Source: a virus
Virus record (IMG/VR): IMGVR_UViG_3300020198_000887
Span: 1-64,000 of that record
Direction: 5' to 3' (one strand)
DNA length: 64,000 nucleotides
Shown piece after piece: positions 54,380-58,277 of the stretch (the first letter of the stretch is position 1; each line of letters begins with the position of its first letter). The notes below the pieces were generated by a model, which saw nothing but the letters and a program-made list of their open reading frames with translations, was not told the DNA's origin and did no database searches. The translations under genes and the position numbers were made by a program.

Positions 54380-54536
54380 TATGGGAATTAACAAAGACTA
54401 CGACTTTGAAGCATGTGAAACTTGTCCACCACTTTACGAATTTGCAGCTAGGTGTTCATGTAAAATAGAAGACGTACTGGTAGATATATCAAAAGAACTC
54501 AATGAAGGTATCTCTTTATGGGAGGATTCTGAATGA
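54380..54536 (+). CDS. small Cys-containing ORF (~51 aa) abutting the polymerase start; ends approximate
   Basis: MGINKDYDFEACETCPPLYEFAARCSC...; GGAG RBS; ends in an ATGA overlap. Confidence 0.4.
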
Positions 54537-57175
54537 GTTACGTAGATGCAATGTTTGACCGCGATTCGGACTTCATCAAAGTGGTAGAACGAATTAATGG
54601 AAAACGGGTATTCAAAGAATACCCAGTACGCCATACATTTTATTATGAAGATACCCGTGGTAAATATAAATCCATTTATGATACACCAGTCACAAAGGTA
54701 GTATGCAAAACAACCAAGGACTTCAGAAAAGAATTATCAATTAACAACAATAAAAAATTGTTTGAAGCTGATTTAAATCCAGTGTTTGTATGCCTAAGTT
54801 CCCAATATCAACATCAGGATCCCCCATCCCTAAATGTAGCGTGGCTCGACATTGAAGTGCGATTTGACCCAGAACGTGGCTATGCATCACCAGATGATGC
54901 ATTTATGCCAATTACTGCGGTCGCGGTTCATTTACAATGGCTAGATACTCTTATATGCCTTGCCGTCCCCCCACCAACATTGACAATGGATGAAGCAGTC
55001 CTGTTGGTGGAAGAATTTCCGAATACACACTTATTCAACACAGAAGCAGAATTATTAGATGCATTTTTGGATCTAATTAAAGATGCTGATGTATTAAGTG
55101 GGTGGAATAGCGAAGGGTTTGATATTCCATATCTCGTAAACCGGGTCACAAAGGCATTGAGTAAAAATGATACTCGTAGATTTTGTTTATGGAATCAATT
55201 CCCAAAACGCAGGGAATATGAAAAATATGGTAAAGAGGCCGTCACGTATGACTTAGTCGGGCGAGTTCATTTAGATAGCTTAGAATTATACAGAAAATAT
55301 ACCTATGAAGAACGGCATAGCTATCGGTTAGATGCTATTGCAGAATATGAATTGGGTGATAGAAAAACTGCATATGAAGGAACGTTAGACCAATTATATA
55401 ACAATGATTTTAAAAAATTTATTGAATATAATAGGCAAGATACCATGCTGTTAGAAAAACTTGACAAAAAATTAAAGTTTTTAGATTTAGCAAATGCAAT
55501 TGCACATGAAAATACTGTATTATTACAAACTACAATGGGCGCGGTCGCTGTTACTGAGCAAGCAATTATAAATGAAGCACATGACAGAGGATTCGTTGTA
55601 CCAAATCGTAATAGACAAGATACAAATGACGGTATGGCGGCTGGAGCATATGTTGCACACCCTAAAGAAGGGATACATGATTGGATCGGTTCCCTTGACA
55701 TTAATTCACTATACCCATCAGTTATTCGAGCATTAAATATGGGGCCAGAAACCATTGTTGGGCAACTATCACCCGCAATGTCTAACTCTTTTTTAAAAGG
55801 TCAATTAGCAAAAGGCAAATCAATTACCGCTGCGTGGGAAGGACGATTTGGTTCGTTGGAATATGATGCTGTTATGAATCGTGAGGTTGATACTTATATA
55901 ACAATCGAATGGGAAGAAGGCGGTTCGGATACAATTAGTGCAGCTAATATTTATAAATTAATTTATGAGTCAAACCAACCATGGATGCTGAGTGCTAATG
56001 GCACTATTTTTACACATGAACGGGAAGGTATCATACCAGGATTATTGAAACGATGGTATTCTGAACGTAAAGAGATGCAGAAAAAATTAAAAGAAGCCAT
56101 TACTTCAGGCGACAAAGAACAAGAAGAATACTGGGATAAACGACAACTAGTCAAAAAAATTAATTTGAATAGTTTATACGGTGCTATTCTTAATCAAGGC
56201 TGTCGGTTTTTTGATAAGCGAATTGGTCAATCAACTACACTAACTGGTAGACAAATTGCCAAACATATGGCAGCAGAAGTGAATAAAATTATTACTGGTG
56301 AATATAATCATGTTGGGAAATCTATTATATATGGTGATAGTGTAACTGGTGATTCAATGATTATATCCAACCAAGGTAGAATTACTATCGAGGAGTTATT
56401 TAATCGGTGTAATAACAACTACACATCAGGATCAAAAGAATATGGTAACAACGACGATATAACAGTAATGGGGTTTACTAATTCACCAGAAATGTGTAAT
56501 ATTCATTATGTAATGAGGCATTATACAACCAAAGATTTGTATGAAATAACATTAGAGAATGATAAACAAATTACTGTAACACAAGATCATAGTATAATGG
56601 TTATTAGAAATAATAGTATGATTGAATTAAAACCTACTGACATATCTGAATCAGATCTGTTTATATGCTTATCAAATGATATGAAAGAAGTAGAATTAGT
56701 ACAATATAAACAAATTGTCTGTAAAGGTTCAATTACTGATTATGTTTATGATATAAGCATCAATGGTGATAACCATATGTTTTTTGCGAATGAATGTTTA
56801 GTTCATAATACTGATAGTTGTTCTGCTGATACTATTATTAGAAGTAATTGGGGAGATTTGACCATTGAACAGCTATTCAATGCTGGTCAAATGTTTAGTA
56901 ATGAACAGACGGAACATGGTGTTAAGGAATACTCTTCTCATATGGACTTACAAGTGGTTTCATATGATGATTCTACTAATCAATCATATTATGGAAATGT
57001 AAATTACATCTATCGTCATAAAGTTTCAAAAGAACGCTGGGAGATAGAAGATGAACTTGGTCACAAAATAGTAGTGACTGGTGATCATTCAATAATGGTT
57101 GAGCGTAATGGTAAGTTGATAGAAATAAAACCACGGGATATTTTAGATACTGATATATTAATATGTCTTAATTGA
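54533..57175 (+). CDS. polB: family B DNA polymerase N-terminal part, with cis mini-intein (56339-56809) and split-intein N-fragment (56816-57172)
   Basis: Exo I DIE, Exo II WNSEGFD, Exo III YNRQD, DINSLYPS, KINLNSLYG, YGD|SVTGD...VHN|TD|SCSAD...TGDH...CLN*. Confidence 0.93.
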   Translation: MSYVDAMFDRDSDFIKVVERINGKRVFKEYPVRHTFYYEDTRGKYKSIYDTPVTKVVCKTTKDFRKELSINNNKKLFEADLNPVFVCLSSQYQHQDPPSLNVAWLDIEVRFDPERGYASPDDAFMPITAVAVHLQWLDTLICLAVPPPTLTMDEAVLLVEEFPNTHLFNTEAELLDAFLDLIKDADVLSGWNSEGFDIPYLVNRVTKALSKNDTRRFCLWNQFPKRREYEKYGKEAVTYDLVGRVHLDSLELYRKYTYEERHSYRLDAIAEYELGDRKTAYEGTLDQLYNNDFKKFIEYNRQDTMLLEKLDKKLKFLDLANAIAHENTVLLQTTMGAVAVTEQAIINEAHDRGFVVPNRNRQDTNDGMAAGAYVAHPKEGIHDWIGSLDINSLYPSVIRALNMGPETIVGQLSPAMSNSFLKGQLAKGKSITAAWEGRFGSLEYDAVMNREVDTYITIEWEEGGSDTISAANIYKLIYESNQPWMLSANGTIFTHEREGIIPGLLKRWYSERKEMQKKLKEAITSGDKEQEEYWDKRQLVKKINLNSLYGAILNQGCRFFDKRIGQSTTLTGRQIAKHMAAEVNKIITGEYNHVGKSIIYGDSVTGDSMIISNQGRITIEELFNRCNNNYTSGSKEYGNNDDITVMGFTNSPEMCNIHYVMRHYTTKDLYEITLENDKQITVTQDHSIMVIRNNSMIELKPTDISESDLFICLSNDMKEVELVQYKQIVCKGSITDYVYDISINGDNHMFFANECLVHNTDSCSADTIIRSNWGDLTIEQLFNAGQMFSNEQTEHGVKEYSSHMDLQVVSYDDSTNQSYYGNVNYIYRHKVSKERWEIEDELGHKIVVTGDHSIMVERNGKLIEIKPRDILDTDILICLN

Positions 57176-57178
57176 TAA

Positions 57179-57328
57179 TTCGATAAGAGAAATAGTGCTA
57201 TCCGTCAAGGATTCGATGTATATGTTATTTGGGAATCTGATTGGAATAAAAATAAAAATAGTATAATAGAAAATATAAAAGATTGGTGGAATAATGGCAA
57301 TAACAAAACTAAAAATCAAATCAATTAA
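57179..57328 (+). pseudogene. C-terminal remnant of a Vsr/DUF559-like homing endonuclease
   Basis: FDKRNSAIRQGFDVYVIWESDWNKNKNSIIENIKDWW with no start codon, between the split-intein halves. Confidence 0.65.
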
Positions 57329-58277
57329 ACATCTAGGCAATTTTGATGATGAATACGTATATGACATTGGGATGAAAAATGAAGCACATCCTTGGTTTTT
57401 TGGGAATAATATTTTAATTCATAATTCCTGTTATTTCTCAGCATATTCTACGTTAAAAACTGATATTGACAATGGGACTATTCCGTGGAGTAAAGAAGAT
57501 ATATCTGCATTCTACGATGGAATAGGAAACCTGGTAAATGGTACCTTTCAACGATTTATGCTAGATGCATTTAACTGCCCTGCATCACGGGGTGAAGTTA
57601 TCAAAGCAGGGCGTGAAATCGTTGGGGTTAAGGGATTATTTATTACCAAAAAACGGTATGCAGTGTTAGTATATGATAAAGAAGGTAAACGAAAAGACAC
57701 CAATGGTAAACCTGGTGAAATCAAAGCAATGGGGTTGGATTTAAAGAGATCAGATACCCCAGAATACATGCAAACATTTTTAAGTGACGTCCTTGAAATG
57801 GTATTAGATGGGGTACCAGAATCCGAGGTATTAGATACAATTAAAAATTTTAGATCTAGTTTCAAAGCATTGGATGGGTGGGAAAAAGGATCACCTAAAC
57901 GTGCTAATAATATAACTAAATATCAAAAATTAGAAGAAAAACATGGAAAATCTAATTTACCAGGCCATGTTAGAGCCAGTATAAATTGGAATACCTTGAA
58001 AAGAATTTTTAATGACAAATATTCCATGAATATTACAGATGGTGCAAAAGTAATTGTGTGCAAATTAAAACCAAATCCATTGGGTTTCACAAGTGTAGCA
58101 TATCCAGTAGATGAATTAAGATTGCCGCAGTGGTTTAAAGATTTGCCGTTTGACCACGATGAAATGGAAGCTACCATAATTGACAAAAAGGTAGAAAACT
58201 TGATTGGTGTTCTTAACTTAGATTTACAAAGTACCAATGAAAAAACTACCTTCAGTAAATTGTTTTTCTTCAAATAA
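57294..58277 (+). CDS. polB: split-intein C-fragment (44 aa, to 57425) + family B DNA polymerase C-terminal part
   Basis: YVYDIG...FFGNNILIHN|SCYF...KKRYA...MGLDLKRSDTP. Confidence 0.93.
   Translation: MAITKLKIKSIKHLGNFDDEYVYDIGMKNEAHPWFFGNNILIHNSCYFSAYSTLKTDIDNGTIPWSKEDISAFYDGIGNLVNGTFQRFMLDAFNCPASRGEVIKAGREIVGVKGLFITKKRYAVLVYDKEGKRKDTNGKPGEIKAMGLDLKRSDTPEYMQTFLSDVLEMVLDGVPESEVLDTIKNFRSSFKALDGWEKGSPKRANNITKYQKLEEKHGKSNLPGHVRASINWNTLKRIFNDKYSMNITDGAKVIVCKLKPNPLGFTSVAYPVDELRLPQWFKDLPFDHDEMEATIIDKKVENLIGVLNLDLQSTNEKTTFSKLFFFK

Follow-up and report, generated by a model that had tools for sequence, protein, structure and literature searches.

In the first 64 kb of the 142-kb viral contig IMGVR_UViG_3300020198_000887 of IMG/VR (positions 1 to 64,000 of that record, hereafter the window), the gene of a family B DNA polymerase (PolB) is interrupted by two homologous inteins that lie only two residues apart. 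The gene probably encodes the replicative polymerase of an uncultured freshwater jumbo phage and carries in its motif C two class 1 inteins with serine as first residue (Ser1), namely a contiguous, presumably cis-splicing intein at YGD/TDS (intein 1, site 1; here and below a slash marks an insertion point or a junction) and a split, presumably trans-splicing intein at DTD/S (intein 2, site 2). Judged from its sequence, this polymerase gene is real and probably functional, its product presumably being matured by one cis- and one trans-splicing event two residues apart. The arrangement is shared: the layout D/intein/TD/intein/S was found in 40 cluster representatives, the window protein included.

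Structure of the polymerase locus

Two open reading frames (ORFs) on the + strand make up the locus. ORF1 (54533-57175, 880 amino acids, aa) carries the PolB N-extein, intein 1, the dipeptide TD and the N-fragment of intein 2 (Int2N); ORF2 (57294-58277, 327 aa) follows on the same strand after a gap of 118 nucleotides (nt) and carries the C-fragment of intein 2 (Int2C) and then the PolB C-extein. The N-extein (54533-56338; 602 aa, residues 1-602) is T4 gp43-like, ends in GKSIIYGD, matches the Pfam families DNA_pol_B (2.8e-30) and DNA_pol_B_exo1 (1.5e-17) and is 87% identical to that of the loci L014 and L019, which are intein-less and have the nearest exteins. Intein 1 (56339-56809), a contiguous mini-intein of 157 aa (SVTGDSMII...ECLVHN), is inserted between Asp and Thr of YGDTDS (IIYGD/S...HN/TD) and matches PDB 9HTH with an E value of 2e-18. 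It is followed by the Thr-Asp of YGDTDS (56810-56815), read directly from the sequence, and by the 119 aa of Int2N (56816-57172; SCSADTIIR...ILICLN; PDB 9HTH match with E 2.8e-13), which ends at the canonical split site. A double stop, TGA TAA (57173-57178), closes ORF1. Behind it lie the remnant of an endonuclease gene (57179-57328, see below) and, 4 nt ahead of the ATG of ORF2, the Shine-Dalgarno-like sequence GGTGG (57285-57289). Int2C (57294-57425; 44 aa, MAITK...NILIHN, ..EYVYDIGMKNEAHPWFFGNNILIHN) shares 58-62% identity with the C-fragment of PA5oct and the C-lobe in the intein of SCTP-2, and the C-extein (57426-58277; 283 aa and a stop codon), which begins with SCYFSAY and thus provides Ser+1, shares 80% identity with L014/L019 and reaches 22.4 bits with Pfam DNA_pol_B.

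Once both inteins are taken out of the translated ORFs, IIYGDTDSCYF is regained. Intein 1 has its +1 nucleophile in the Thr of this dipeptide, and the Asp, which is the second motif C aspartate of PolB, forms the -1 residue of intein 2. Both ORFs are open, without frameshifts, and the PolB motifs are intact. Translation returned the same coordinates and lengths as an original prediction made from the letters alone, i.e. a 157-aa intein 1, TD, a 119-aa Int2N with its stop, a 44-aa Int2C and SCYF. No terminator-like site was found on the + strand between ORF1 and ORF2, and promoter-like sites did not exceed the shuffled expectation (29 vs 23.2 +/- 4.7). Read-through of the stop from ORF1 into Int2C was considered as well and is ruled out by the two consecutive stops and the different frame of Int2C.

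Splicing motifs and predicted activity

The two inteins align along their length, as had been proposed: with Int2N and Int2C joined, BLASTP gives a collinear alignment to intein 1 of 166 columns with 39% identity (E 7e-35). The break of intein 2 coincides with the canonical site of endonuclease insertion and splitting and aligns to ..ICLS/ND.. of the contiguous intein 1. Pfam Intein_splicing (PF14890) recognizes two stretches of ORF1 (69.5 bits, cut-off 35.8); Int2C alone reaches 14.3 bits, which is under this cut-off. Class 1 nucleophiles are present in both inteins, as Ser1 and Thr+1 in intein 1 and as Ser1 and Ser+1 in intein 2, and the remaining motifs can be read in parallel: the NX motif is VMRHYTTK in intein 1 and YIYRHKVSK in intein 2, block B is TQDH and TGDH, block F VYDIS and EYVYDIG, and block G LVHN and NILIHN, respectively. 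A histidine after Arg or Lys in the NX motif is a signature of Ser1 inteins (PMC10189870), and this residue occurs in both window inteins and in all 40 site-2 inteins of the tandem set. The cysteines of intein 2 (Cys2, Cys117) are non-catalytic; the C-extein has a cysteine at +2.

Among solved structures the best match of both inteins is the Aes123 PolB1 intein (PDB 9HTH). Int2N is 64-66% identical to the corresponding parts of P0004 and P0210 and 47% identical to the N-fragment of P0245, an LCGC14-like protein that bears the signature peptides of LCGC14 PolB2. With DTD and SAY exteins, trans-splicing of the latter intein goes nearly to completion in vitro (PMC12707363). All splicing motifs being intact, both window inteins look functional. 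Weak support for an association of the halves is lent by the prediction of a complex between the ORF1 portion (N-extein tail, intein 1, TD, Int2N) and the ORF2 portion (Int2C, C-extein head), in which Int2C is positioned on a chain with intein 1 folded and which scored 0.48 against 0.00 for the best control, with a contact agreement between runs of at least 76% and a partner pLDDT (predicted local distance difference test) of at least 65. Of the solved complexes 51 of 78 reach the pass mark of this prediction, as do 2 of 108 mismatched pairs, and scores of 0.60 or less comprise 5 of the 78 solved complexes and all 4 mismatches that passed; the pass may reflect memory of, or likeness to, solved split-intein complexes.

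Proposed maturation of the polymerase

In the maturation that we propose, ORF1 would be translated as N-extein-intein 1-TD-Int2N and ORF2 as Int2C-C-extein. Intein 1 would be excised in cis via its Ser1 and Thr+1, Int2N and Int2C would associate and trans-splice via Ser1 and Ser+1, and the end product would be a single polymerase of 887 aa with an intact YGDTDS. Because intein 2 and the C-extein both start with SC, the downstream context of intein 1 (+1 to +4) is TDSC before as well as after the removal of intein 2, and the upstream context of intein 2, T(-2) D(-1), is identical with or without intein 1. The junction residues are thus unchanged by the order of events, and either splicing order is therefore chemically possible. 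A cis-first order seems more likely, since intein 1 is complete once translated. The bearing of such neighbouring residues is known from the Aes123-derived CL and CLm inteins, in which the -1 residue strongly affects splicing, and from changes at -2 and +2, which alter the splicing rate of the CL intein (PMC13014065).

Since the two inteins are homologous, cross-complementation of their lobes is conceivable, and the pair could then act as one composite element, in which Ser1 of intein 1 and the terminal Asn and Ser+1 of intein 2 remove everything between them, TD included. In the product of this reaction, however, YGD would be joined to SCYF (YGD-SCYF), and the second aspartate of motif C would be lost. 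Moreover, the NTD/S junction and both internal sets of splice residues are kept in 40 of 40 tandem representatives, which makes sense only if each intein splices by itself, and in relatives with two split inteins TD is supplied on a polypeptide of its own; composite excision is accordingly regarded as very unlikely.

Several points nevertheless weigh against an active gene matured by two separate splicing events. Splicing in the phage itself is deduced from the sequence and from assayed homologues, with a complex prediction that is weak, and the contig represents ~37% of the genome, so that a second polymerase may be encoded elsewhere. Two HINT domains joined by two residues may hinder each other sterically or have to splice in a fixed order, and intein 1, as a homologue, might be disturbed by Int2C. 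Finally, endonuclease loss belongs to the decay phase of the homing cycle, in which splicing activity may be subtly lost. Taken to the extreme, the gene would be a pseudogene in which one or both inteins no longer splice, the phage being defective or using another polymerase. The reduction of the homing endonuclease gene to a fossil, the incomplete contig and a case for activity built on sequence would all be compatible with this, but the ORFs are open without frameshifts, and the catalytic residues of both inteins are intact together with the polymerase motifs. In addition, the exteins are 80-87% identical to those of L014/L019, which read through motif C uninterrupted, and the polymerase described here is the only PolB on the 142-kb contig. 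We therefore consider a pseudogene unlikely and retain the functional, twice-spliced polymerase as the probable reading.

Recurrence of the tandem

A word-indexed search with the intein region revealed 13 further clusters with both inteins, and 26 more tandem clusters came to light when 1.84 billion representatives were searched exhaustively with HMMER, which brings the total to 40 with the window protein. Apart from the window protein and P0004, these representatives derive from assemblies of JGI, ENA and Logan. All four combinations of cis and split inteins occur among them (site 1 given first): cis + split in 20 (among them the window, P0004, P0008, P0012 and P0210), cis + cis in 15 (e.g. 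P0003 and P0005), split + split in three (P0218, P0283 and P0337) and split + cis in one (P0239), with a single unclear combination (P0221). At 30-65% identity, Ser1 and the TxxH motif are each present in 35 of 35 site-1 and 40 of 40 site-2 inteins, and a terminal HN or KN is found in all 40 representatives. We read the invariance of Ser1, TxxH and the terminal Asn, at an overall identity that drops as low as 30-40%, as purifying selection on splicing. P0004 occurs in 91 blocks of the collection, and its locus consists of an N-half, a 351-aa endonuclease and a C-half; the loci of P0008 and P0012 are likewise cis + split, with intact endonucleases of 572 and 368 aa between the halves.

Among IMG/VR relatives retrieved by extein peptide patterns, all 70 loci were without both inteins, and intein-specific patterns matched none of the IMG/VR loci. 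Similarly, no tandem was found in records of cultured phages, where 49 of 49 records matching intein 1 have a single matching place. In some intein-less close relatives (L023:1790-2720, and L015) the match to the N-extein is broken by ~930 nt past residue 113, probably by another mobile insertion in the polymerase gene.

The recurrence bears directly on the quality of the assembly. The window derives from a short-read metagenome assembly, and two alleles with one intein each could in principle have been joined into a chimera, which the original prediction had named as the possible refutation of the tandem. Logan contigs of one run cover the whole stretch without differences, and those of a second cover 56399-57800 with both inteins, yet these two runs (X1 and X2), the only ones whose contigs bridge the full intein 1/TD/intein 2 region with at least 31 nt on each side, may both be the source sample. 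Contigs from other samples nonetheless bridge parts of the locus with zero differences: the junction of N-extein and intein 1 is spanned in run X4, and the stretch from Int2N through the double stop and the fossil into Int2C in runs X3 and X4. The X4 contig 56794-57319 begins 16 nt before the end of intein 1 and leads via TD into intein 2. An assembly chimera is unlikely, and indeed exceedingly so, because the same layout recurs in ~40 clusters from many independent assemblies; the suspected refutation does not hold.

Some loci depart from the common arrangement. A split + split PolB is found at L089:5258-8473 (also L090 and L091, i.e. in three samples), in the order 601 aa, 233 aa (..IIYGD/Int1N), 161 aa (Met-Int1C-TD-Int2N), a 298-aa endonuclease and 363 aa (Int2C/SCYF..), where Int1N and Int1C denote the fragments of a split site-1 intein; the only extein in the middle polypeptide of ~160 aa is TD. 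L092:2861-6495 is split + split like L089; here Int1N and Int1C are separated by the gene of a Vsr-like endonuclease, and the C-half is not adjacent. P0239 (502 aa) consists of Int1C, TD, a contiguous intein 2 and the C-extein. P0280 (155 aa) reads IntC..HN/CDTD/S..IntN (IntC and IntN being intein C- and N-fragments) and thus has a middle extein of four residues, the first intein being of the Cys+1 kind and lying one position earlier (Y/CDTD). In the tandems of P0233 and P0286 the site-1 partner is ~360 aa long, with the LAGLIDADG-like motif LAGYVLGDGY, and ~200 aa long, respectively, in both cases beside a split site-2 N-fragment.

Phylogeny of the two inteins

Whole-length homology and 39% identity between neighbours would be expected had the tandem arisen by recent local duplication of one intein, slipped by two codons, and in other lineages (P0008, P0012) the members of a pair are indeed close in the tree, over which at least nine changes of the site label are counted. 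The window pair does not conform to this. When 86 intein N-lobes (115 columns) were placed in a maximum-likelihood tree by a quick search, intein 1 came to lie in a 24-row clade of site-1 inteins only, with SH-aLRT (Shimodaira-Hasegawa-like approximate likelihood ratio test) support of 93 that is to be read in view of the quick tree and short alignment; intein 2 groups with the site-2 inteins of the tandem-bearing P0002-P0007 (97, under the same reservation). The site-1 and site-2 subtrees of the window group are broadly congruent. Approximately unbiased (AU) tests reject the window inteins as sisters (p = 0.009) and likewise a single clade uniting all 14 inteins of P0001-P0007 (p = 0.0016, for a group named after the tree was seen). 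The comparison of local duplication and independent invasion that had been proposed at the outset thus rejects a recent local duplication in this lineage, which we regard as highly improbable; the two window inteins are old, site-specific lineages.

For the tree as a whole, the site label changes and the close partners in P0008 and P0012 suggest a transfer of inteins from one site to the other and a repeated origin of tandems. The exteins of the tandem-bearing P0003 and P0004 are 57-67% identical to those of the window and hence more distant than many relatives with empty sites, a distribution for which the inteins must have been either gained horizontally or lost precisely more than once.

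Comparison with known inteins

Every component of the locus is already known: pol-c inteins, Ser1/Ser+1 split inteins of phage PolB, Vsr-like free-standing endonucleases and the loss of endonuclease genes. That both sites are individually known for PolB had been stated beforehand and is borne out by YGD/TDS, which is the classical pol-c allele site (PMC549080), and by the DTD/S inteins of Aes123, CP21 and LCGC14. Intein 1 shares with the pol-c inteins its site and the pair Ser1/Thr+1, and it is a mini-intein like that of SCTP-2, which has a contiguous mini-intein at YGD/TDS only; it differs from them in its C-extein, which is TD followed by another intein and not polymerase sequence. Archaeal maxi-inteins at site 1 are also among its homologues (P0108, P0114, P0116).

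Intein 2, inserted after DTD with Ser+1 (..TD/SCSAD, ..IHN/SCYF), corresponds to Aes123 (YIDTD/SVVGD, ..VHN/SVYL). With the cysteine-independent inteins of Aes123 PolB1, CP21 PolB1 and LCGC14 PolB2, studied by the Mootz and Pietrokovski labs (PDB 9HTH; PMC11923092, PMC12707363), all of which trans-splice in vitro (PMC11923092, PMC12707363), it shares the DTD/S site, Ser1/Ser+1, the NX histidine and the split site, and its fragments of 119 + 44 aa fit the about 115-120 aa and about 39-46 aa of Aes123-type N- and C-fragments. Unlike in these inteins, the N-extein of intein 2 ends in another intein plus TD. In the GenBank loci of Aes123 PolB1 and CP21/CC_R7, whose inteins lie at DTD/S, a Vsr-type endonuclease gene is present between the halves, whereas the window retains a fossil. 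In PA5oct, which like Aes123 is occupied at site 2 only, the split intein of that site is accompanied by an endonuclease gene of 560 aa, and the same split layout was described for MIJ3 (PMC6892783). LCGC14 PolB2 was also considered as the second intein of a tandem, which was rejected: in its look-alike P0245, an ORF truncated at the N-terminus, there is one intein only, at site 2.

The DnaE of Trichodesmium combines cis and split inteins. It resembles the window polymerase in this combination, and with DnaB and MCM it shares the presence of several inteins in one replication protein at sites in catalytic motifs. In DnaB, sites a and c are two residues apart, and the only sites reported to be occupied at the same time are a and b (PMC4760082); the MCM-a intein of Haloarchaea and its neighbour MCM-d have been studied for homing interference (PMC10643990). 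Full-text literature searches, which leave most subscription journals outside their coverage, returned no description of two inteins separated by a dipeptide extein. The earlier statement that the tandem is uncharacterised thus stands in so far as no paper on tandem occupancy was found, but the tandem is not unique to this phage, as the 40 cluster representatives demonstrate. We provisionally regard the tandem occupancy of YGD/TD/S as novel.

Origin of the split

The spacer between the two ORFs contains a start-less fossil of 49 codons and a stop (57179-57328, + strand, in the frame of ORF1), left from the 3' end of a Vsr-like free-standing homing endonuclease gene. Its counterpart in the intact 351-aa Vsr-like endonuclease of P0004 is a C-terminal stretch of 39 residues (310-348; 56% identity, pairwise E 7e-16), and it aligns more weakly to the endonucleases of KP13-7, CP21 and Aes123; its end overlaps the start of Int2C in the way seen at the P0004 locus. 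This match and the overlap geometry identify the locus as a putative fractured gene in the sense of PMC2677866 that lost its endonuclease. By the 'fractured gene' route, a free-standing Vsr-like homing endonuclease gene would have entered intein 2, which became split, and would later have been deleted down to the 49-codon fossil, leaving intein 2, like the mini-intein 1, without an endonuclease of its own. The locus resembles known fractured genes (Dassa et al. 2009, PMC2677866; the split PolB of PA5oct/MIJ3) in having its N- and C-fragments on adjacent ORFs of the same strand and in the Vsr-like family; in those, however, an intact free-standing endonuclease ORF lies between the halves, whereas only the last 49 codons are left in the window, which is hence a derivative and not a full member. 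A stage after endonuclease loss and before unlinking is predicted by the fractured-gene model (PMC2677866).

Two unrelated endonuclease families occur at the same split point of site-2 inteins. The Vsr-like type is found in Aes123, CP21, KP13-7, P0004 and P0012 (L080:6704-7759, L076:2537-3598), and the other type, of 300-570 aa and with a conserved C-terminal ..W(D)SGN.., in PA5oct, P0008 and L089 (L004:5402-7084, L084:6853-8571, L089:6476-7372), with a Pfam match to DUF723 on the P0008 gene. The contiguous site-2 inteins of P0122, P0178 and P0188 have a non-conserved linker of ~30-60 aa at the split/endonuclease position and may be split inteins that were re-fused after loss of the endonuclease gene.

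Genome context

The 142-kb contig has a CheckV completeness of ~37%, which points to a jumbo phage as its source; the GC content is 35%. The sequencing runs that contain the stretch are lake-water metagenomes. By polymerase, the nearest cultured relatives are the group of the Pseudomonas jumbo phage PA5oct (49% identity) and SCTP-2, a phage of Salicola (41%), and the sole match of a megablast search against phages was 73 nt of extein in Klebsiella jumbo phages. The same phage has a third intein in a portal-like (T4 gp20-like) ORF (L003:466-3351, contig 126839-129724, outside the window), which reads from ..NPL/CLDLTT... to ..VFVKN/SINEDYFF, contains an HNH-like insert (HHKDNNRFNNDPRNL) and matches Pfam Intein_splicing under the cut-off (E 5.7e-9).

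Conclusions

Split PolB inteins are already a tool of protein engineering, and each intein family encountered here is known. What the tandem raises are questions of whether two HINT domains can fold and stay reactive when one peptide bond separates their active sites, whether splicing follows an obligatory order, how homologous neighbours avoid cross-reaction and how homing proceeds when each intein disrupts the target site of the other. With ~40 clusters and all four cis/split combinations at hand, these questions are testable with natural sequences.

Tentatively, and as a possibility that we doubt more than we favour, YGD/TD/S might be seen as a natural platform on which two co-evolved, mutually orthogonal Ser inteins are placed back to back on a two-residue extein. 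If so, the pol-c mini-intein, itself endonuclease-less, would owe its spread to hitch-hiking with the neighbouring split intein and the endonuclease of the latter, since any gene-conversion tract from a tandem donor carries both inteins, and the catalytic Asp would be installed only after two independent splicings, i.e. by a two-key maturation. The polypeptide of ~160 aa in L089 and L092, donating nothing but TD, would then represent the shortest natural extein, and these loci would offer an orthogonal pair for cysteine-free protein ligation of three segments. In split + split forms the two split inteins should necessarily make up an orthogonal and cysteine-independent pair, such as is sought in recent work (PMC12707363). 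The chief interest thus lies in the family as a whole, with its recurrence, its four combinations and, in some relatives, a middle polypeptide whose only extein is TD.

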